A stretch of DNA of 64,000 bases from Escherichia coli (GTDB taxonomy: Bacteria > Pseudomonadota > Gammaproteobacteria > Enterobacterales > Enterobacteriaceae): the NCBI RefSeq assembly GCF_016903815.1, contig NZ_CP069973.1, one strand, 5' to 3'. A model generated the notes under the pieces. It did no database searches and was not told where the DNA came from. It worked only from the letters and a program-made list of their open reading frames with translations. Below, one piece after another: positions 2,710-23,000 of this stretch (positions within the stretch are counted from its first letter, which is position 1; each line of letters opens with the position of its first letter). The translations under genes were made by a program, and so were the position numbers.

Positions 2710-3765
2710 GTGAAAAGTGCAATGACAAGCTCTCCGCTGCGGGTCGCGATCATAGGCGCGGGCCAGGTGGCGGATAAGGTTCATGCTTCGTACTACTGCA
2801 CCCGCAACGATCTGGAACTGGTGGCTGTCTGTGACAGCCGCCTTTCCCAGGCGCAGGCGCTGGCAGAAAAATACGGGAATGCATCCGTGTGGGACGATCC
2901 GCAGGCCATGCTGCTGGCGGTGAAACCTGATGTGGTTAGCGTCTGCTCACCTAACCGTTTTCATTACGAACATACCCTGATGGCGCTGGAAGCGGGCTGC
3001 CATGTGATGTGCGAAAAACCGCCCGCCATGACGCCAGAACAGGCGCGGGAAATGTGCGATACCGCGCGCAAACAGGGCAAGGTGCTGGCCTACGACTTTC
3101 ACCATCGTTTTGCGCTCGATACGCAACAGCTGCGTGAACAGGTGACCAACGGCGTTTTGGGAGAGATTTACGTTACCACCGCCCGCGCCCTGCGTCGTTG
3201 CGGTGTTCCCGGCTGGGGTGTCTTTACCAATAAAGAATTGCAGGGCGGTGGCCCGCTGATCGACATCGGCATTCATATGCTGGATGCGGCGATGTATGTG
3301 CTGGGTTTTCCAGCGGTGAAAAGCGTGACTGCGCATAGCTTTCAAAAGATCGGCACGCAAAAGAGCTGCGGTCAATTTGGCGAGTGGGACCCGGCAACTT
3401 ACAGCGTCGAAGATTCGCTGTTTGGCACCATTGAATTTCATAACGGCGGCATTCTGTGGCTGGAAACGTCATTTGCACTCAACATCCGCGAACAGTCGAT
3501 TATGAACGTCAGCTTTTGTGGCGATAAAGCAGGGGCGACGCTGTTTCCGGCGCATATCTATACCGATAACAACGGTGAGTTAATGACGCTGATGCAACGG
3601 GAAATGGCAGACGACAACCGCCATTTGCGCAGTATGGAAGCCTTTATCAATCACGTACAGGGCAAGCCCGTGATGATAGCCGACGCCGAGCAGGGGTACA
3701 TCATCCAGCAACTGGTGGCGGCGTTGTATCAATCCGCAGAAACAGGGACGCGTGTGGAATTATGA
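2710..3765 (+). CDS. ycjS: Gfo/Idh/MocA-family NAD(P)-dependent oxidoreductase
   Basis: GTG start at 2710. It has the N-terminal Rossmann motif IIGAGQV and the EKP motif, in operon context. Confidence 0.8.
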   Translation: MKSAMTSSPLRVAIIGAGQVADKVHASYYCTRNDLELVAVCDSRLSQAQALAEKYGNASVWDDPQAMLLAVKPDVVSVCSPNRFHYEHTLMALEAGCHVMCEKPPAMTPEQAREMCDTARKQGKVLAYDFHHRFALDTQQLREQVTNGVLGEIYVTTARALRRCGVPGWGVFTNKELQGGGPLIDIGIHMLDAAMYVLGFPAVKSVTAHSFQKIGTQKSCGQFGEWDPATYSVEDSLFGTIEFHNGGILWLETSFALNIREQSIMNVSFCGDKAGATLFPAHIYTDNNGELMTLMQREMADDNRHLRSMEAFINHVQGKPVMIADAEQGYIIQQLVAALYQSAETGTRVEL

Positions 3766-9994: not shown

Positions 9995-11392
9995 ATGAAG
10001 CGACTTAAAAATGAACTTAATGCGCTGGTGAATCGGGGTGTCGACAGACATCTGCGCCTCGCTGTAACCGGACTTAGCCGCAGCGGCAAAACAGCGTTTA
10101 TCACCGCGATGGTTAATCAGTTGCTCAATATTCATGCCGGAGCACGTTTGCCGCTTTTAAGTGCGGTGCGTGAAGAGCGCCTGCTGGGCGTAAAACGCAT
10201 TCCCCAGCGTGACTTTGGCATTCCGCGCTTCACCTATGATGAAGGGTTGGCGCAGTTATATGGCGATCCTCCCGCCTGGCCGACGCCTACGCGCGGCGTC
10301 AGTGAAATTCGCCTGGCGTTACGTTTTAAATCGAACGATTCGCTGCTACGCCACTTTAAGGACACCTCCACGCTGTATCTGGAAATTGTGGATTACCCCG
10401 GCGAATGGTTGCTCGACCTGCCGATGCTGGCGCAGGACTATTTAAGCTGGTCGCGCCAGATGACGGGCTTACTCAATGGTCAGCGCGGCGAATGGTCGGC
10501 GAAATGGCGAATGATGTGCGAAGGGCTGGACCCGCTAGCGCCTGCCGACGAAAACCGGCTGGCAGACATTGCCGCCGCCTGGACCGAGTATCTCCACCAC
10601 TGCAAACAGCAGGGGTTGCACTTTATTCAGCCTGGGCGCTTTGTCTTGCCGGGAGATATGGCAGGAGCACCCGCGCTGCAATTCTTCCCGTGGCCGGATG
10701 TCGATGCCTGGGGCGAGTCCAAACTGGCGCAGGCCGATAAGCATACCAATGCCGGAATGCTGCGCGAGCGGTTTAATTATTACTGCGAGAAAGTGGTGAA
10801 GGGGTTCTATAAGAATCATTTTCTGCGCTTTGACCGCCAGATTGTGCTGGTGGATTGCCTGCAGCCTCTCAACAGTGGGCCACAGGCATTTAATGATATG
10901 CGTCTGGCGCTGACGCAGCTGATGCAAAGTTTCCACTACGGGCAGCGAACCCTGTTCCGGCGTTTGTTTTCGCCGGTTATCGATAAGCTATTGTTTGCTG
11001 CTACTAAAGCAGACCATGTGACCATCGATCAGCACGCCAATATGGTTTCATTACTGCAACAACTAATTCAGGATGCCTGGCAAAATGCGGCGTTCGAAGG
11101 GATCAGCATGGATTGCCTGGGGCTGGCGTCAGTTCAGGCGACCACCAGCGGCATTATTGATGTTAACGGTGAGAAAATCCCGGCGCTGCGCGGTAATCGA
11201 CTCAGCGATGGCGCACCGCTCACTGTTTATCCTGGCGAAGTTCCCGCACGTTTGCCTGGTCAGGCGTTCTGGGATAAGCAAGGCTTCCAGTTTGAGGCGT
11301 TTCGTCCGCAGGTGATGGATGTCGACAAACCGCTGCCGCATATTCGTCTTGATGCTGCGCTGGAATTTTTAATAGGAGATAAATTGCGATGA
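9995..11392 (+). CDS. ycjX: P-loop NTPase YcjX (DUF463)
   Basis: Walker A GLSRSGKT. The start is placed at MKRLKNELN, inside the longer 9914 ORF. Confidence 0.8.
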
Positions 11393-12597: not shown

Positions 12598-14139
12598 ATG
12601 CGTCTGGAAGTCTTTTGTGAAGACCGACTCGGTCTGACCCGCGAATTACTCGATCTACTCGTGCTAAGAGGCATTGATTTACGCGGTATTGAGATTGACC
12701 CCATTGGGCGAATCTACCTCAATTTTGCTGAACTGGAGTTTGAGAGTTTCAGCAGTCTGATGGCCGAAATACGCCGTATTGCAGGTGTTACCGATGTCCG
12801 TACTGTCCCGTGGATGCCTTCTGAACGTGAGCATCTGGCGTTGAGCGCGTTACTGGAAGCGTTGCCTGAACCTGTGCTCTCTGTCGATATGAAAAGCAAA
12901 GTGGATATGGCGAACCCGGCGAGCTGTCAGCTTTTTGGGCAAAAATTGGATCGCCTGCGCAACCATACCGCCGCGCAATTGATTAACGGCTTTAATTTTT
13001 TGCGTTGGCTGGAAAGCGAACCGCAGGATTCGCATAACGAGCATGTCGTTATTAATGGGCAGAATTTCCTGATGGAGATTACGCCTGTTTATCTTCAGGA
13101 TGAAAATGATCAACACGTCCTGACCGGTGCGGTGGTGATGTTGCGATCAACGATTCGTATGGGTCGTCAGTTGCAAAATGTCGCCGCCCAGGACGTCAGC
13201 GCCTTTAGTCAAATTGTCGCCGTCAGCCCGAAAATGAAGCATGTTGTCGAACAGGCGCAGAAACTGGCGATGCTAAGCGCGCCATTGCTGATAACCGGTG
13301 ATACCGGCACCGGAAAAGATCTCTTTGCGTATGCCTGTCATCAGGCAAGCCCACGCGCGGGCAAACCCTATCTGGCGCTGAACTGTGCTTCTATCCCGGA
13401 AGATGCGGTCGAGAGTGAACTGTTTGGTCATGCTCCGGAAGGGAAGAAAGGGTTCTTTGAGCAGGCGAACGGTGGTTCGGTACTGCTGGATGAAATAGGT
13501 GAGATGTCACCACGGATGCAGGCGAAATTACTGCGTTTCCTTAATGATGGCACTTTCCGTCGGGTTGGCGAAGACCATGAGGTGCATGTCGATGTGCGGG
13601 TGATTTGCGCTACGCAGAAGAATCTGGTCGAACTGGTGCAAAAAGGCGTGTTCCGTGAAGATCTCTATTATCGTCTGAACGTGTTGACGCTCAATCTGCC
13701 GCCGCTACGTGACTGTCCGCAGGACATCATGCCTTTAACCGAGCTGTTCGTCGCCCGCTTTGCCGACGAGCAGGGCGTGCCGCGTCCGAAACTGGCCGCT
13801 GACCTGAATACTGTACTTACGCGTTATGCGTGGCCGGGAAATGTGCGGCAGTTAAAGAACGCTATTTATCGCGCACTAACACAACTGGACGGTTATGAGC
13901 TGCGTCCTCAGGATATTTTGTTGCCGGATTATGACGCCGCAACGGTAGCCGTGGGCGAAGATGCGATGGAAGGTTCGCTGGACGAAATCACCAGCCGTTT
14001 TGAACGCTCGGTATTAACCCAGCTTTATCGCAATTATCCCAGCACGCGCAAACTGGCAAAACGTCTCGGCGTTTCGCATACCGCGATTGCCAATAAGTTG
14101 CGGGAATATGGTCTGAGTCAGAAGAAGAACGAAGAGTAA
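12598..14139 (+). CDS. tyrR: Transcriptional regulator TyrR
   Basis: Sigma54-interaction-type AAA domain (GDTGTGKD, GAFT-like) and a C-terminal HTH. The start is at MRLEVFCEDRLG. Confidence 0.9.
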   Translation: MRLEVFCEDRLGLTRELLDLLVLRGIDLRGIEIDPIGRIYLNFAELEFESFSSLMAEIRRIAGVTDVRTVPWMPSEREHLALSALLEALPEPVLSVDMKSKVDMANPASCQLFGQKLDRLRNHTAAQLINGFNFLRWLESEPQDSHNEHVVINGQNFLMEITPVYLQDENDQHVLTGAVVMLRSTIRMGRQLQNVAAQDVSAFSQIVAVSPKMKHVVEQAQKLAMLSAPLLITGDTGTGKDLFAYACHQASPRAGKPYLALNCASIPEDAVESELFGHAPEGKKGFFEQANGGSVLLDEIGEMSPRMQAKLLRFLNDGTFRRVGEDHEVHVDVRVICATQKNLVELVQKGVFREDLYYRLNVLTLNLPPLRDCPQDIMPLTELFVARFADEQGVPRPKLAADLNTVLTRYAWPGNVRQLKNAIYRALTQLDGYELRPQDILLPDYDAATVAVGEDAMEGSLDEITSRFERSVLTQLYRNYPSTRKLAKRLGVSHTAIANKLREYGLSQKKNEE

Positions 14140-14143
14140 GCGC

Positions 14144-14180
14144 GAATATGCCTGATGGTGCAACACCATCAGGCATATTA
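14144..14180. terminator. Bidirectional rho-independent terminator between convergent tyrR and tpx
   Basis: 15-bp perfect stem atatgcctgatggtg/caccatcaggcatat flanked by A/T runs. Confidence 0.75.
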
Positions 14181-14182
14181 AC

Positions 14183-14689
14183 TTATGCTTTCAGTACAGC
14201 CAGAGCTGCTTCGTAATCCGGCTCGGTGGTGATTTCATCCACCAGTTGGCTGAAAATCACATTGTCATTTTCATCAATAACCACAACGGCACGCGCTGCC
14301 AGACCTTTCAGTGGGCCATCAGCAATTGCCACACCGTAGGCTTGCAGGAATTCAGCGTTACGGAAAGTGGAGAGGGTGATAACGTTGTTCAGACCTTCTG
14401 CGCCGCAGAAACGAGACTGGGCGAACGGCAGATCGGCAGAAATACACAGCACAACGGTGTTGTCGATCTCGGTTGCCAGTTGGTTAAACTTACGTACTGA
14501 TGCGGCGCAAACACCGGTATCAATACTCGGGAAAATGTTCAGCACTTTGCGTTTACCCGCAAACTGACCGAGGGTGACGTCAGACAGATCTTTTGCCACG
14601 AGAGTAAAAGTCTGCGCTTTGCTACCCGCCTGCGGGATGGAATTGGCGACTGTAACCGGGTTGCCCTGGAAATGAACGGTTTGTGACAT
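14183..14689 (-). CDS. tpx: Thiol peroxidase
   Basis: 168-aa peroxiredoxin (atypical 2-Cys) with conserved Cys residues. Confidence 0.9.
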
Positions 14690-14797
14690 GATTATCTTTC
14701 CTGTTTACATATAGTTAACGTCACACCTAGTTTATGCTAACTGTCAATAACACAGCAAACGCTATTTGCGCTTAATCCGCAGACCACCGCGACAACA

Positions 14798-15747
<950 letters not shown>

Positions 15748-15773
<26 letters not shown>

Positions 15774-16476
15774 GATGCCAGCGCAGCAAGTTTGCCATCG
15801 CAAAGAGATATTTTTCGCTGGCTTCGTCGGAGGAGATGGGTGGAAACTCTGCGGTGATGCAATGCAGGTTGAGATCCGCACACCAACTGCCGAAAGAGCC
15901 AGGCGTTTCATAACCGACGCTGGTTACCAGAGGCAATTCAAACGCCTGGGCCAGCCATTCACCTAATTCGCTGTGTCTGGGATCTTCAATACAGGCCAGC
16001 GGATCGTGGAATGAGACCACCCAGGCGGGTTGAATGCGGTGTATAAGCTGGCACAGCGCCTGGGTTTCAGGTTCAGAGCCAGGTTTGTCACCTGTCAGCA
16101 ATACGACATCACGTTCTTCAGCGGCGCTGTTCCAGCGATAAACGGTTTCACCTTCCTTCCAATTCGCCGCCGGAAAGTTTCTGTTTAAATCCACACCATT
16201 AGCATTGGCCCGTAACCCCAACTGGCAGCCGTCAGGATTCACACACAGCACCACATGATGACGGCGCAAAGAAGGTGTCAACGTCCGCAGAGCACAGGAG
16301 AGCGTGACGACCGAAGAGTTTTCATCACCGTGAGTGCCAGCCAGAATCAAACCACTTTCGCGGCTGGCTGCAGGGGCAGGAAACCAGATTAACGGCGCGC
16401 CCAATAATGAACGTCCGTAATGTTCTGTTCCGGGCGGAAATGCGCCGCGTTCGGCGCGTGGGCGGGTTACGGTCAT
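15748..16476 (-). CDS. mpaA: Murein peptide amidase A (gamma-D-Glu-Dap amidase, M14 family)
   Basis: 242 aa from MTVTRPRAERG with a zinc carboxypeptidase-like HxxE motif. Confidence 0.85.
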
Positions 16477-16571
16477 GATCGTCTCTGGTTCAGGAAGTAT
16501 TACAGGCAGTGTTGTGCAAATTTTGCGGATTATCAAATCCTTTTCTTCAACGCTATGTCATCGATCTTGTA

Positions 16572-16601
16572 TCACTTTTTTGCCGGAAGTTGTTTGCATT
16601 T
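16572..16601. promoter_or_regulatory. Conserved 30-bp motif, copy 1 (mpaA upstream region)
   Basis: tcacttttttgccggaagttgtttgcattt matches 19683..19712 at 28 of 30 positions. Confidence 0.5.
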
Positions 16602-16766
16602 TCATTGATGTGCAGATATTAGAATTGTCGTAATGTTATATACATGGCGTATTTTATTCTTACTGGTTCTACACATGTTAATCGCATCTGATTGATCAGT
16701 TCACCTTAATAAGTTTAATAAATCGTACTGCACATAGTACAGTACGAAGGTAGCTATATAATTGAT

Positions 16767-17405
16767 TTACATGAAGAATGGCTTATCGCCATCAGTCCCG
16801 GGCTGATTGATGCCTATATTCTCACCAATGTGTTTCTCAGGTTTATCGATGATATCTGTAATTAATGCTGCGACACTCTTACGTGATACGATCGTACCTT
16901 TGAATGGTTCATTGCGTGAGGTAAGCTCATAATCAATAATATCTTCATCGGTCAGCCAGGCAGGGCGAAGAATTGTATATTCCAGTCCAGAAGCCTCAAT
17001 TGCATCCGCAGCCCTGCGGAATGGTTTTAGGGGCTCACAAATAACTGCATTATTCCATTCGCCAAATTTTCCTGGAACTTCATCATAAATACCGAGGGAA
17101 AGAACAAAGATCAGACGTTTAACATCACAGGCTTTCATCGCAGCGATCACTGAATTTGCCTGAATATCTAAATCTTCCCCCGTAAGGTTGGCATACACAA
17201 CATCCTGTCCCTGCATGGCCTGCTTCAGTGCTGCATGATTCAGTACATCCCCCATAATAATCTTGCTATTAGTTGGATAGGGTTTGTGGATTTTTGCTGG
17301 CTGACGGGCAAATAAAGTTTGTTTAATGGTTTGTTTATCTGCCAGTTGATTAATCACATGGCGGGCTATCTGACCGCCAGCACCAAGAATCAGTACATTT
17401 TTCAT
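16767..17405 (-). CDS. ymjC: NAD(P)-binding (NmrA/SDR-like) protein, apparently full length
   Basis: N-terminal GAGGQIA Rossmann motif, 212 aa. A 7-bp inverted repeat follows the stop at 16724-16746. Confidence 0.7.
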   Translation of the reverse strand: MKNVLILGAGGQIARHVINQLADKQTIKQTLFARQPAKIHKPYPTNSKIIMGDVLNHAALKQAMQGQDVVYANLTGEDLDIQANSVIAAMKACDVKRLIFVLSLGIYDEVPGKFGEWNNAVICEPLKPFRRAADAIEASGLEYTILRPAWLTDEDIIDYELTSRNEPFKGTIVSRKSVAALITDIIDKPEKHIGENIGINQPGTDGDKPFFM

Positions 17406-17475
17406 GAAACTTTTCCCAGATTATTGGCAGCAATATGCCAGGCCATATCACTATTACGGATTTGAATATGTTTCA

Positions 17476-18396
17476 TTACAGAGTTTCCTCAAAGAACGGC
17501 GCTAATACTGAAATTGCTTCAGCCACATAGACTTTGCCGTCATAAAGATCCATATGGTTTGCGCCTTCAACAATGTGATAGCGTTTATCCTGGCTTGATG
17601 CTCGATCGTACAGGTCGTCACTCATCCATTTGCTCCCTGCCTGGCTGCCCGCCACAATCTGTATCGGCTGAGTCAGGTACACTTCCGCCATATGGTAAGC
17701 ATCATAGGTAATAATCTGGTTAAGGCTGCGCAAAGTAGCGTAACCCGGTGCTGTTGGATACTGCGCGCGAGGGGTGTGGTAATACTCCCAGGCCTGACGC
17801 AGTTCTTCGTTCGGCGCATCGGACTCCTTCATTGGTGCCAGTGGCATGGTGGCGTATTCTCCGCTGCTAATATCGCTGGTTCGGGCGTTTGAACCCGCGT
17901 CAACGTATGGTAGGGCATCAATAGATTTCACATTGTTTTCCCAACCATTACGGAACATCGAACCAATATTGACCGCACTAACAGTACCGATGGCCTTGAT
18001 GCGGCGATCCTGAATTGCAGCATTGGCTGTATATCCTGCACCGGCACAAATTCCCATCGCACCAATTCGGCTATTGTCGACATAAGAAAGCGTTGTCAGA
18101 TAATCAATCACGGCACTGACGTCTTCAGTACGAATGTATGGGTTTTCTAACTGACGCGGCTCGCCGCCGCTTTCACCTTGATAAGATGCGTCATAAGCAA
18201 TAGTGACAAATCCCTTTTCCGCCAGTTTTTCGGCATAGGTTCCAGCCGTTTGCTCTTTAACGCCCCCACCTGGGTGAGATACCACAATTGCCGGATACTG
18301 ACGGGTTTCATCAAATTTTGGAGGGAAATAGATCACTGCAGACAAAGAGATGGTTGGATTATTGCTGTTAGTGAAGCTGACTTTATTATTCATCAT
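17476..18396 (-). CDS. ycjY: Alpha/beta hydrolase (dienelactone hydrolase / S9-like)
   Basis: 306 aa from MMNNKVSF with a GxCxG nucleophile elbow (GICAGAG). Confidence 0.8.
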   Translation of the reverse strand: MMNNKVSFTNSNNPTISLSAVIYFPPKFDETRQYPAIVVSHPGGGVKEQTAGTYAEKLAEKGFVTIAYDASYQGESGGEPRQLENPYIRTEDVSAVIDYLTTLSYVDNSRIGAMGICAGAGYTANAAIQDRRIKAIGTVSAVNIGSMFRNGWENNVKSIDALPYVDAGSNARTSDISSGEYATMPLAPMKESDAPNEELRQAWEYYHTPRAQYPTAPGYATLRSLNQIITYDAYHMAEVYLTQPIQIVAGSQAGSKWMSDDLYDRASSQDKRYHIVEGANHMDLYDGKVYVAEAISVLAPFFEETL

Positions 18397-18533
18397 TCCG
18401 TTCCTCATGGAGTTGTCGGTTCGTTTTAACGGTTGGTGATATCACTATAGATATTGATCATTAAGTTGATTAGACCCAAAATCATGATTAGACCTATCAT
18501 TTAAATGATTAATAGATTGTATGGAGATACTGA

Positions 18534-19433
18534 ATGAAGCGTGAAGAAATCGCTGATCTGATGGCGTTTGTCGTCGTTGCAGAGGAGCGTAGCTTCACTC
18601 GCGCAGCAGCCCGCCTGAGCATGGCGCAGTCAGCTTTAAGCCAGATAGTGCGCCGTATAGAAGAACGATTGGGATTGCGGCTTCTGACACGAACCACGCG
18701 CAGCGTTGTACCCACTGAAGCGGGCGAGCATCTTTTGTCTGTTCTTGGCCCTATGTTGCATGACATAGATTCTGCCCTGACATCCCTGAGCGATCTGCAG
18801 AACCGCCCATCCGGGACAATACGTATTACTACTGTAGAACATGCAGCAAAAACGATATTGTTACCAGCTATGCGCACATTCCTGAAATCGCATCCTGAAA
18901 TTGATATCCAGCTTACCATTGATTATGGTTTGACCGATGTCGTTTCTGAACGTTTTGATGCAGGCGTCCGTCTGGGTGGGGAGATGGATAAAGATATGAT
19001 CGCCATTCGAATCGGGCCAGATATACCAATGGCTATTGTTGGCTCACCGGATTATTTTTCTCGTCGAAGTGCTCCAACGTCAGTGTCACAATTAATAGAT
19101 CATCAGGCAATTAATTTGTATCTTCCCACATCGGGTACAGCAAATCGCTGGAGATTAATACGCGGTGGACGTGAAGTTCGTGTTCGCATGGAAGGTCAGC
19201 TTTTACTGAATACGATAGACCTGATCATTGATGCTGCAATTGATGGGCATGGATTGGCGTATCTACCTTATGATCAGGTTGAGCGGGCTATTAAAGAAAA
19301 AAAACTGATACGTGTTTTGGATAAATTCACACCAGATTTACCCGGTTATCACCTGTACTATCCACACCGTCGACATGCTGGCTCGGCATTCTCATTATTT
19401 ATAGATAGGCTGAAGTATAAAGGTGCTGTTTAG
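18534..19433 (+). CDS. ycjZ: LysR-family transcriptional regulator
   Basis: N-terminal LysR HTH (FVVVAEERSFTRAAARLSMAQSALSQ), 299 aa. Confidence 0.85.
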   Translation: MKREEIADLMAFVVVAEERSFTRAAARLSMAQSALSQIVRRIEERLGLRLLTRTTRSVVPTEAGEHLLSVLGPMLHDIDSALTSLSDLQNRPSGTIRITTVEHAAKTILLPAMRTFLKSHPEIDIQLTIDYGLTDVVSERFDAGVRLGGEMDKDMIAIRIGPDIPMAIVGSPDYFSRRSAPTSVSQLIDHQAINLYLPTSGTANRWRLIRGGREVRVRMEGQLLLNTIDLIIDAAIDGHGLAYLPYDQVERAIKEKKLIRVLDKFTPDLPGYHLYYPHRRHAGSAFSLFIDRLKYKGAV

Positions 19434-19682
19434 CACTACTTGCTGATACATTAATTTAATTCTTCTCTTAACGTATTCTCAGTTCCTTTCAACGTTTTGG
19501 TCATTTTTTATTCTTCGTACAATGGCGACAGATGCTGATTATGATACCGAAAACGGGTTTGAACGTGCGAAGCCCGAACGTAGTGTTCGGAGTTCTATGT
19601 GCTTTACCGCATTTTGGAGACTATTATTTACACTAAATCTGATTTGATATATTGATACTTAAAACATTTGATGCTTCCTTTG

Positions 19683-19712
19683 TCACTTTTTTGATGGAAG
19701 TTGTTTGCATTT
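19683..19712. promoter_or_regulatory. Conserved 30-bp motif, copy 2 (mppA upstream region)
   Basis: tcacttttttgatggaagttgtttgcattt lies 58-87 bp upstream of the mppA ATG. Confidence 0.5.
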
Positions 19713-19769
19713 CTTTAAGGCGAAACAAATAATTACGCATCAATTTTAATGTCGGTTAGAGGGAAACTT

Positions 19770-21383
19770 ATGAAGCACTCTGTTTCAGTCACGTGTTGTG
19801 CGCTGTTGGTCAGCAGCATTTCTCTTTCGTATGCTGCTGAAGTTCCGAGCGGCACAGTACTGGCAGAGAAGCAGGAGCTGGTGCGCCACATTAAAGATGA
19901 GCCAGCGTCTCTGGATCCCGCTAAAGCCGTGGGCCTGCCGGAGATTCAGGTCATTCGCGATCTGTTTGAAGGACTGGTGAATCAGAACGAGAAAGGGGAG
20001 ATTGTCCCCGGCGTTGCGACTCAGTGGAAAAGTAATGACAACCGTATTTGGACTTTTACCCTGCGCGATAACGCAAAATGGGCGGATGGCACACCGGTAA
20101 CGGCGCAAGATTTTGTCTACAGCTGGCAACGTCTGGTGGACCCAAAAACATTGTCGCCATTTGCATGGTTTGCCGCGCTGGCGGGAATCAACAACGCACA
20201 GGCGATTATTGATGGTAAAGCCACGCCTGACCAGCTTGGCGTCACCGCAGTTGATGCCCATACTTTGAAAATCCAGCTTGATAAACCGTTGCCGTGGTTT
20301 GTGAATTTAACCGCTAACTTTGCCTTCTTCCCGGTGCAAAAAGCCAACGTAGAAAGTAGTAAAGAGTGGACGAAACCCGGAAAACTGATCGGTAATGGCG
20401 CTTATGTTCTTAAAGAGCGCGTAGTCAATGAAAAACTGGTCGTGGTACCGAATACCCATTATTGGGATAACGCCAAAACGGTGCTGCAAAAAGTGACCTT
20501 CCTGCCAATTAATCAGGAATCCGCAGCCACTAAGCGTTATCTCGCGGGGGATATTGATATCACCGAATCCTTCCCGAAAAATATGTATCAGAAGCTGTTG
20601 AAGGATATTCCGGGGCAGGTTTATACGCCGCCGCAGCTCGGGACCTATTATTATGCGTTTAACACGCAAAAAGGGCCGACGGCCGATCAGCGTGTTCGCC
20701 TGGCATTAAGTATGACGATAGATCGCCGCCTGATGACCGAAAAAGTGTTGGGGACGGGGGAAAAGCCAGCGTGGCATTTTACACCAGATGTTACTGCCGG
20801 TTTTACGCCGGAGCCTTCGCCGTTTGAACAAATGAGTCAGGAAGAACTGAATGCGCAGGCAAAAACTTTGTTGAGCGCAGCTGGTTATGGTCCGCAAAAA
20901 CCGCTGAAGCTGACGCTTTTGTATAACACTTCAGAAAACCATCAAAAAATTGCGATTGCTGTAGCATCGATGTGGAAAAAGAACCTTGGCGTAGATGTTA
21001 AATTGCAGAATCAGGAATGGAAAACCTATATCGATAGCCGTAACACCGGCAATTTTGATGTTATCCGCGCCTCATGGGTAGGGGATTATAATGAACCCTC
21101 CACTTTCCTTACGTTGTTAACGTCAACGCATTCAGGGAATATTTCACGCTTTAACAATCCGGCATACGACAAAGTACTGGCCCAGGCATCAACGGAAAAT
21201 ACCGTTAAAGCGCGTAATGCCGATTACAATGCGGCAGAAAAAATCCTCATGGAGCAAGCACCGATTGCACCAATTTATCAATATACCAATGGACGATTAA
21301 TCAAGCCGTGGCTGAAAGGTTATCCCATTAATAACCCGGAAGATGTGGCGTACAGTCGGACTATGTATATTGTGAAGCATTGA
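19770..21383 (+). CDS. mppA: Periplasmic murein tripeptide-binding protein
   Basis: OppA-family SBP with a signal peptide. The start is at MKHSVSV, preceded by a GAGGGA RBS. Confidence 0.9.
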   Translation: MKHSVSVTCCALLVSSISLSYAAEVPSGTVLAEKQELVRHIKDEPASLDPAKAVGLPEIQVIRDLFEGLVNQNEKGEIVPGVATQWKSNDNRIWTFTLRDNAKWADGTPVTAQDFVYSWQRLVDPKTLSPFAWFAALAGINNAQAIIDGKATPDQLGVTAVDAHTLKIQLDKPLPWFVNLTANFAFFPVQKANVESSKEWTKPGKLIGNGAYVLKERVVNEKLVVVPNTHYWDNAKTVLQKVTFLPINQESAATKRYLAGDIDITESFPKNMYQKLLKDIPGQVYTPPQLGTYYYAFNTQKGPTADQRVRLALSMTIDRRLMTEKVLGTGEKPAWHFTPDVTAGFTPEPSPFEQMSQEELNAQAKTLLSAAGYGPQKPLKLTLLYNTSENHQKIAIAVASMWKKNLGVDVKLQNQEWKTYIDSRNTGNFDVIRASWVGDYNEPSTFLTLLTSTHSGNISRFNNPAYDKVLAQASTENTVKARNADYNAAEKILMEQAPIAPIYQYTNGRLIKPWLKGYPINNPEDVAYSRTMYIVKH

Positions 21384-21433
21384 TGTGATGGGAATTGGCG
21401 TTACCCTTGTGGATAACGCCAGTGATGTCTGAT

Positions 21434-22465
21434 TTAGCGACCCTGGTCCGGCGGTGTAATGTTATCCATATACAGCGTCTGGCTGGGGAAGGCAAAGTCC
21501 GCGCCGTGTGACTGTACAATATCGATAATCTTCAAATAAACGTCTTGCTGTGCAGCAAGCCATTCAGCCCATACCGTGGTTTTGGTAAAGCAATAAACCA
21601 TAATATTCAATGAGGAGTCAGCAAACTGGTTGAAATAAACCAGTAAGGTTTGTCGCTGGTCAATGGCCGGGTGATTTTTCAGCATCTCACGTACGGCTTC
21701 GACAATAACGCCCACTTTTGCCGCATCCTCATAACGTAAACCAATGGTCGTGGTAATGCGCCGGTTGGTCATTCGTCCTGGGTTTTCTACGCTGATTGAC
21801 GAAAACAGCGAGTTCGGTACGTACAACGGACGATTATCAAAAGTCGTAATCTTGGTAATTCGCCAGCCAATTTCCGATACTGTACCTTCGATATTTCTGT
21901 CCGGTGAACGGATCCAGTCGCCAATACTAAAAGGACGGTCGAAATAGAGCATAATCCCGGAAAAGAAGTTACTCAGAATATCTTTACCGGCCATACCGAC
22001 AGCCAGACCACCAATACCACCAAAGGTCAACAAGCCAGAAAGGCTCATGCCGAAATGTTCGCCATAAAGCAGAACAAGCACCACAATAATGGTGATTTTG
22101 ATGATACGCGACATAATCCGCGCACTGGTGATATCGCGACCTTTTTTAATCTGCTGTTTTTCAAACTGATTTATCAGCAGAAATAGTTTAATCGTCAGAA
22201 TAACCGCAATCAGGGACGTACAGATAAAATCGATAACGCCTGGGGTGATAAATTTGAGTTTATAGTTTTCTATAACATAATTAATGATGCTACCAACAGC
22301 ACTGATAATTATGGTGTAGATTAAAAATTGCACCGCATGGAATAAAAATCCTTTTCTTTTACGATTTCCGCGGCGAAACCAAAAGCTCATCAGAATCAAT
22401 GCTGCGCAGCTACCGAAAATAATGACCAGATTAAGCGCATTATTTGTAAACAGTTCAGCGATCAT
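21434..22465 (-). CDS. ynaI: MscS-family mechanosensitive channel
   Basis: 343 aa with N-terminal TM helices and an MscS beta domain. Confidence 0.85.
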
Positions 22466-22708
22466 TGTTTTATCAGGCTCCTCCAGATAATTGTCGTCAT
22501 GCCGGAAACCCCTGGCGGGGCTATTTTACCGCGACAATTCATTCAGATCATCAATAGTCAGGGAAGGAAGTAGCAACATTAGCTAACTAATCAATGCGTT
22601 GATTGTAAATCCAGCTAAGAGGTGAGGTTTTCAGAGCAGACAACGGTAAAATGTCATGGTATTGTTATGTTTAGGTAACAAGAAATTTGTCTGCACAAGG
22701 ATTACATC

Positions 22709-22966
22709 ATGATTATGGCGAAACTGAAGTCAGCGAAAGGGAAGAAATTTCTCTTTGGTTTGTTGGCGGTTTTCATTATTGCGGCGTCGGTTGTGACTCG
22801 CGCGACCATCGGCGGCGTGATAGAACAGTACAATATTCCGCTGTCTGAGTGGACGACATCAATGTATGTGATTCAGTCATCGATGATTTTTGTTTATAGC
22901 CTGGTCTTTACTGTGTTACTGGCAATCCCGTTGGGAATTTATTTCCTTGGCGGCGAAGAGCAGTAA
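22709..22966 (+). CDS. ynaJ: Small inner-membrane protein (DUF2534)
   Basis: 85 aa with two TM segments, divergent from ynaI. Confidence 0.75.
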   Translation: MIMAKLKSAKGKKFLFGLLAVFIIAASVVTRATIGGVIEQYNIPLSEWTTSMYVIQSSMIFVYSLVFTVLLAIPLGIYFLGGEEQ

Positions 22967-22971
22967 GTAAA

Positions 22972-23000
22972 AAATAGGCCCGTTAACTCGGGCCTTGTCA
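22972..23000. terminator. Terminator hairpin between convergent ynaJ and uspE
   Basis: Stem aggcccg/cgggcct with an A-run upstream and a T-rich tract downstream. Confidence 0.65.

Follow-up and report, generated by a model that had tools for sequence, protein, structure and literature searches.

A 30-bp direct repeat upstream of mpaA and mppA in Escherichia coli as the probable duplicated core of an ancestral bidirectional promoter bracketing the ymjC-ycjY-pgrR cassette

The locus treated here carries two near-identical 30-bp sequences, one upstream of mpaA (murein tripeptide amidase) and one upstream of mppA (murein tripeptide-binding protein), in a 64,000-nucleotide stretch of an Escherichia coli genome (contig NZ_CP069973.1), which was analysed as a whole and is referred to below as the window. 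Several described systems come close to it. They include islets of foreign genes with short direct repeats at their junctions, divergent gene pairs served by back-to-back promoters, and LysR divergon cassettes, in which a regulator gene diverges from its target across an operator-bearing spacer. Deletion between short direct repeats is also familiar, lacI being the classic case. Finally, Shimada, Yamazaki and Ishihama are said, in papers that cite their work of 2013 (Genes Cells 18:123), to have described a PgrR regulon of peptidoglycan-peptide recycling.

Like the islets, the locus has repeats at the junctions of a foreign segment and precise empty sites with a hybrid copy in natural strains, the crossover being placeable here on either side of two mismatches. 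Unlike them, it lacks mobility genes, and its repeat is probably the recipient's own 30-bp bidirectional promoter core rather than DNA of the element. As in divergent back-to-back promoters, the mapped mpaA transcription start site (TSS) and the predicted mppA TSS lie about 70 bp apart in the single-copy state, with the motif between the two -10 elements, whereas in most E. coli the core is duplicated, its halves are 2.4-4 kb apart and each promoter has a private copy. The cassette itself, with pgrR divergent from a hydrolase target across a spacer that carries repeated operator-like sequences, does not differ from other LysR divergon cassettes, which are also present in Pluralibacter and metagenomic relatives; its relevance here is that it marks the regulator as foreign to the control region of mpaA and mppA. 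The genes are the same as in the PgrR regulon, with ycjY-ymjDC-mpaA and ycjG under reported PgrR control, but the reported PgrR site is the ycjY/ycjZ spacer and not the 30-bp motif (PMC5934670). We consider it very likely that the two repeats are the duplicated core of the old mpaA/mppA bidirectional promoter and bracket the inserted ymjC-ycjY-pgrR cassette. No description of the repeat or of the indel was found in the searchable literature; the phenomena involved, namely an insertion scar and the duplication of a promoter core, are well known.

The left copy, TCACTTTTTTGCCGGAAGTTGTTTGCATTT, occupies positions 16572-16601 and the right copy, TCACTTTTTTGATGGAAGTTGTTTGCATTT, positions 19683-19712, both on the + strand. 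They are identical at 28 of 30 positions, and the mismatches are central, with CC in the left copy and AT in the right one. The earlier note on this DNA, made from the sequence alone, had placed the left copy 96-125 nt upstream of mpaA and the right copy 58-87 nt upstream of mppA and had remarked that their orientation relative to the genes differs. All of this was confirmed: mpaA is on the - strand (15748..16476, with its ATG at 16476), mppA on the + strand (19770..21383, with its ATG at 19770), both as in the RefSeq annotation of homologous loci, and the copies are direct on the + strand while the genes are divergent. With up to 3 mismatches allowed, the pattern TCACTTTTTTGNNGGAAGTTGTTTGCATTT has exactly 2 matches in the window, both on the + strand, and no such pair is expected by chance (0 matches in 100 dinucleotide shuffles, again with up to 3 mismatches). 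In a repeat search, no direct repeat of the region was longer than this pair, which was extended to 37 nt at 86% identity with a spacing of 3111 nt. The extra 7 nt of this extension are without significance, and no decayed homology was found beyond the 30 bp, Smith-Waterman scores around the repeat being no better than those of shuffles. The genome-wide scan that the earlier note had called for gave no sign of a common repeat: in complete E. coli genomes (n = 5426), blastn located the 30-mer at 10625 places in 5418 genomes, with a median of 2 per genome, so that the pair is specific to this locus and no dispersed repeat is involved. The exact right-copy 30-mer was found in 4932 of these 5418 genomes.

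The state of the locus without the cassette was sought in the same 5426 genomes with an artificial junction, in which a single repeat joins the left flank to the right one. It aligns without interruption, at 97-100% identity, to 173 of them, and splits into two places elsewhere. In annotated empty-site E. coli, mpaA and mppA are adjacent and divergent, 182 bp apart, and the alignment of two empty sites with both junctions of the window gives mpaA-side sequence up to the repeat and mppA-side sequence after it, with a single copy in between. An ancestral-state survey by MpaA scan (one genome per species, 80 loci) found mppA at 180-200 bp from mpaA, on the opposite strand, in about 70 species of at least 15 genera, including Citrobacter, Enterobacter, Leclercia, Lelliottia, Kluyvera, Trabulsiella, Pluralibacter, and Pseudescherichia. 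E. ruysiae, E. whittamii, and two further Escherichia lineages share this arrangement. Homologues of ymjC, ycjY, and pgrR are absent between mpaA and mppA in all of these, and in each such spacer the motif is recognisable once, at 94-110 nt from the mpaA ATG. As judged from these sequence comparisons, the occurrence of one motif copy and no cassette across about 70 species identifies the single copy as the ancestral state and the cassette as an insertion in the E. coli lineage. At the two variable positions the outgroups have CC (or TC/AC), and cassette-bearing E. coli have CC in the left copy and AT in the right copy, i.e. the ancestral allele on the left and the derived allele on the right.

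The inserted cassette of the window is 3081 bp long (16602..19682, defined by the empty-site alignment) and is bounded exactly by the repeat copies. The locus around it is about 98% identical to that of K-12, yet the window is not K-12 itself, and the gene order is tyrR-tpx-ycjG-mpaA-ymjC-ycjY-pgrR(ycjZ)-mppA-ynaI. Pfam domains within the cassette are limited to SDR, hydrolase, and LysR. They correspond to ymjC, an intact NAD(P)H-binding SDR/NmrA-like gene that is shortened in K-12 (16767..17405, - strand), ycjY, which encodes an alpha/beta hydrolase (17476..18408, - strand), and pgrR, also named ycjZ, which encodes a LysR-type regulator and is divergent from ycjY (18534..19433, + strand). The GC content of the cassette is about 0.36-0.45 over most of its length, versus about 0.53 in the flanks. 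Homologues of the YcjY protein with 82-89% identity are present in Pluralibacter, Rhizobium, Agrobacterium, Mesorhizobium, Sphingobium, and Burkholderia, where they sit in a like module, with a LysR regulator divergent from one or two hydrolases. The spacer between pgrR and mppA contains a queH (epoxyqueuosine reductase) pseudogene fragment (19531..19605, + strand, from PGAP annotation of homologous stretches and translation), which measures 75-93 nt and is annotated by RefSeq at this place in several genomes; it is likely a relic of the donor context beside pgrR. That the cassette is foreign to the E. coli lineage is seen from its lower GC content, the queH fragment, and the ycjY homologues in alpha- and betaproteobacteria. 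Repeats exactly at the boundaries, single-copy empty sites in relatives, and foreign composition and content are together what characterizes an inserted islet, and all three are observed here. As a side observation, the identity of YcjY is unusually high across classes, which indicates a widely exchanged LysR/hydrolase module.

On the mpaA side, the role of the repeat as promoter DNA is documented by published TSS maps. A start of mpaA was reported at position 1388705 of NC_000913.2, minus strand, with 20 reads (Kim et al. 2012, PMC3415461, Table S1), and the same start was recovered with 37 reads as a transcription unit of its own with sigma codes D and S (Cho et al. 2014, PMC3923258). The printed -50..+1 sequence of mpaA, AACTAATAAAATGCAAACAACTTCCGGCAAAAAAGTGATACAAGATCGATG, includes the reverse complement of the left copy. 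In window coordinates, this TSS falls at 16559, 13 nt from the left copy, which thus covers -42..-13 of the promoter read on the - strand. The feature formed by the TSS and a candidate extended -10, TGaTACAAG (16574-16566), spans 16559..16574 on the - strand. Read in promoter sense, the last three bases of the left copy are the TGA of this candidate extended -10, at -15..-13, and the 5' TCA of the motif, which is TGA on the mpaA strand, is invariant in 72 of 72 species in an alignment of 72 single-copy spacers. The same alignment shows two blocks in the mpaA 5' untranslated region (16505-16520 and 16531-16538; GGCAGTGTTGTGCAAA and TATCAAAT) that are invariant or nearly so, and the first of them resembles the 3' half of the motif (GTTGT-GCA vs GTTGTTTGCA). 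Possible roles for these blocks are those of a further promoter (TTGATA-17-AACACT, minus strand), of a repressor site, or of an element of the untranslated region. Other starts in the published TSS tables lie at K-12 positions 1390556 (-) and 1389172 (-); one of them is a weak start inside pgrR, antisense to it and assigned to ycjY, and one is assigned to ymjD.

On the mppA side, a sigma-70 promoter, TTGCAT-17-AATAAT, is predicted at 19705..19733 on the + strand from its consensus match and its conservation. The right copy holds the candidate -35, TTGCAT (19705-19710), together with a T-rich upstream stretch, and TTGCAT-17-AATAAT is the only sigma-70-like match in the empty-site spacer. Across the 72 species, AATAAT lies within a 14-nt block that is invariant or near-invariant, and TTGCA and A-ACAAATAAT are conserved likewise. 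In the motif as a whole, the 5' TCA, AAG, and the 3' TTGCA-TT show little or no variation, unlike the central bases, and these conserved parts coincide with candidate core promoter elements, namely the extended -10 TG and the -35. The copies can also be compared among E. coli haplotypes (n = 11): no change is seen in the TGA of the left copy or in the 3' 17 nt of the right one, the orphaned TTGCAT of the left copy is TTGTAT in O157 and MS8345, and indels in the T-tract occur in both copies. This variation, from 11 haplotypes that are not independent, is weakly consistent with each copy serving one gene.

Further information on the history of the repeat comes from the empty sites of E. coli, of which three alleles exist, GATGG, GCCGG, and GTCGG. 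The first, with the AT of the right copy, is found in 14 genomes. One of them, CP131, has flanks that are identical to those of cassette-bearing K-12 at 3367/3370 and 2700/2700 positions, and its flanking proteins all share accessions with K-12. An AT empty site within K-12-identical flanks indicates a recent precise excision, by recombination or slippage between the copies, as the only simple reading, with the crossover in the 11-nt arm to the left of the mismatch. AT-type empty sites accompany at least 3 different MpaA alleles, which suggests either more than one event or the spread of a deletion allele by recombination. The remaining empty sites, about 159 (IAI39, CE10, ST648, which we take to be phylogroup F), carry CC or TC. 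The empty site of IAI39 (571-600 of its stretch) has a third allele, TCACTTTTTTGTCGGAAGTTGATTGCATTT, in which GTCGG and ATTGCA are common to Citrobacter and not to either E. coli copy. Some of the phylogroup F empty sites may thus be ancestral rather than secondary deletions.

These observations can be arranged in the following scenario. In ancestral Enterobacteriaceae, mpaA and mppA were adjacent and divergent, about 182 bp apart, and would have had back-to-back promoters with starts about 70 bp from each other. The 30-bp motif would be the DNA between both -10 elements, extending from -13 to -42 of mpaA (with the extended -10 TG) and from about -28 to about -57 of mppA (with the -35). A foreign cassette of 3.1-4 kb, composed of the SDR gene ymjC, 1-2 alpha/beta hydrolase genes, and the LysR gene pgrR with its own probable operator, was inserted into the motif segment in the E. 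coli lineage. This would have duplicated the 30 bp, so that the upstream promoter DNA of both genes remained complete, with one copy for each. Every copy would now serve a single gene, the left one together with the mpaA -10 and the right one together with the mppA -10. If the mppA prediction holds, the insertion would have destroyed at least one promoter unless the core was duplicated, and the observed allele has that duplication; preservation of both promoters may be the reason why it was retained. The duplication could have arisen by repair of a staggered break, by template switching, or by Campbell-type integration of a circle carrying the 30 bp. There are two consequences: each gene would keep its native upstream promoter region, and the short direct repeats let the cassette be lost precisely, with a return to the single-copy spacer of the ancestor.

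Several points weigh against this scenario. The candidate mpaA -10, TACAAG, is without the usual T at -7, and the proximal mppA promoter is a prediction. To our knowledge, no mechanism routinely makes a 30-bp target duplication. The cassette itself offers none: it contains no integrase, transposase, or recombinase domain according to Pfam, no terminal inverted repeats (Smith-Waterman scores were no better than for shuffles), and no tRNA/tmRNA integration site lies within 14000-23000. The approximately 159 empty sites with CC or TC could be ancestral or secondary losses, and the motif may additionally be a transcription-factor site. For mppA, the two TSS datasets contain only a weak start of 6 reads inside pgrR (PMC3415461, PMC3923258). 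This start maps to 19281 (+) of the window, 489 nt upstream of mppA, and would give transcription across the right repeat. The Ettwiller 2016 supplements consulted yielded no match for a proximal mppA TSS.

The alternative that survives best, though improbable, is that the motif is a shared operator, by which PgrR/YcjZ or another factor co-regulates mpaA and mppA, and that its identity is kept by selection on binding. Both gene products act on murein tripeptide, the TCA, AAG, and TTGCA parts of the motif are invariant across genera, and PgrR is reported to repress mpaA, lowering its expression in rich medium. Against this stands first that the duplication accounts fully for the identity of the copies. 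The motif also predates pgrR at the locus and is kept in species without the cassette, it has no evident dyad symmetry, its central positions (CC/AT/TC) vary, and no copies other than those at the locus are present in the genome (median of 2 places). The PgrR targets obtained by systematic evolution of ligands by exponential enrichment (SELEX), as reported in PMC5934670, include the ycjY/ycjZ spacer and neither of the motif-bearing spacers. The regulon given there comprises ycjG, ycjXF-tyrR, and the operon ycjY-ymjDC-mpaA, the last of which is held responsible for the effect of PgrR on mpaA. Also rejected, by eye, was a CRP-like or palindromic site within the motif, given a poor half-site match and central bases that differ from species to species.

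A better candidate for the PgrR operator is found within the cassette, as two TGATTAGACC decamers in the ycjY-pgrR spacer (18467..18494, + strand, by sequence pattern). The decamers are 18 bp apart and overlap the published pgrR -35, TAGACC, and the SELEX peaks fall in this spacer. The pattern …ATTAATCAT..AATGATA.GTCTAATCA…GTCTAA (opposite strand) is conserved in the homologous LysR-hydrolase cassettes of other bacteria (stretches L092 and L094), and the TGATTAGACC pair is thus likely the PgrR operator. This repeat is absent near the motifs, and the ycjY-pgrR spacer has no significant similarity to the motif. As far as phylogenetic distribution can tell, PgrR came in with the cassette and the motif did not evolve as its operator, because the motif is conserved in many species that have no pgrR at the locus. 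What is new here is that pgrR and its likely operator are an imported module that split the ancestral mpaA/mppA divergon. The earlier note had suggested a promoter element of both genes or a shared operator implying co-regulation, with YcjZ as a candidate regulator. The first suggestion stands for mpaA, by its mapped TSS, and for mppA in predicted form, by the conserved candidate -35. The second is not supported, the near-identity being probably due to descent from one duplicated ancestral segment, and YcjZ/PgrR is an unlikely regulator given the motif in about 70 species without pgrR at the locus, the arrival of PgrR with the cassette, and its SELEX sites elsewhere. Near-identical motifs before functionally linked genes can thus mimic the signature of a regulon, and here they appear identical by descent.

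A second alternative sees in the repeats either attL/attR-like core sites of site-specific recombination or a transposon's target-site duplication, and in the cassette a present or former autonomous or mobilisable element. The direct repeats do bound a foreign segment exactly, natural precise empty sites exist, and a different islet occupies the same spacer in Salmonella arizonae and diarizonae. We nevertheless regard this as very unlikely. The lack of an integrase, transposase, or recombinase domain, of terminal inverted repeats, and of a tRNA/tmRNA within 14000-23000 argues against it, as does the length of 30 bp, far beyond the target duplications of insertion sequences and transposons (about 2-14 bp). 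Moreover, what is repeated belongs to the recipient, and every outgroup has it once. Only one transfer between species is apparent, and it looks like homologous replacement: Escherichia sp. E1V33, a separate GTDB species, has a K-12-type cassette with the same deletion junction and a right copy of its own lineage's type. The native-type right copy, together with the K-12-type internal deletion common to both, suggests that this cassette was imported by homologous recombination through the flanks and not by autonomous mobility. The Salmonella islet, about 3 kb long, lies in the same spacer at about the same point in S. enterica subsp. arizonae/diarizonae (L026:5449-7677 and the homologous stretch of L027) and encodes CdtA, CdtB, and CdtC (Pfam CDtoxinA, Exo_endo_phos, and CDtoxinA). 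No flanking repeats were found around it, and the mppA-proximal conserved blocks are replaced there. This cdtABC locus has already been mentioned in the literature (bioRxiv 10.1101/2024.12.10.627768). Being distinct from the E. coli cassette, it indicates that the mpaA-mppA spacer has been hit at least two times independently. Finally, the idea that the two copies match by chance or belong to a family of dispersed repeats (REP/ERIC-like), for which nothing speaks beyond the AT-rich, low-complexity T-tract, has a negligible probability in view of the 0 matches in 100 shuffles, the median of 2 places per genome (5418 genomes), all at the locus, and the absence of an Rfam family at the repeats, the sole match of the Rfam-type search being a sub-threshold RAGATH-10 inside pgrR.

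The duplicated-promoter reading can be extended to a broader proposal, to which we give only a small chance of being right. The duplication would then be no accident of repair but the signature of a promoter-preserving gene acquisition, in that foreign cassettes entering a compact bidirectional promoter would survive only with the core duplicated. The pgrR cassette would in turn act as a reversible switch at the population level: with it, murein-peptide catabolism would be expressed under PgrR control, and without it in the ancestral, PgrR-free manner. Natural excision would have happened repeatedly, in at least 2-3 lineages. Independently of this proposal, PgrR is missing at the locus from about 3% of E. 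coli, chiefly phylogroup F together with sporadic recent excisions, which calls for caution in extrapolating PgrR-based control of peptidoglycan recycling across strains. Natural paired genotypes, with and without the cassette on near-identical backgrounds (K-12 vs CP131-like), are well suited for testing the role of the cassette.

Besides these empty sites, 5244 of the 5426 complete E. coli genomes carry the cassette, which diverges by about 1-3%, much as the flanks do, and exists in three size forms. The full form of about 3.96 kb, exemplified by O157:H7, has two hydrolases, and the form of the window has 3081 bp. The K-12 form has lost 665 bp directly beside the left repeat (16602-17266 of the window). 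This deletion truncates ymjC and removes a terminator-like hairpin that lies in the window at 16723..16747 (- strand), on the 3' side of ymjC and before the left repeat, and that is gone from K-12-type cassettes. Read-through into mpaA may therefore be stronger in K-12-type than in window-type strains. A further new point is that the 'ycjY-ymjDC-mpaA operon' of K-12 follows this strain-specific 665-bp deletion. About 2300 E. coli genomes cover less than 80% of the cassette, and the examples listed all begin at query position 666. In the E. coli genome searches, 6-12 places matching the junction flanks, the cassette, or the 30-mer sit on records labelled plasmid; these may be mis-assigned replicons or plasmid-captured chromosomal segments.

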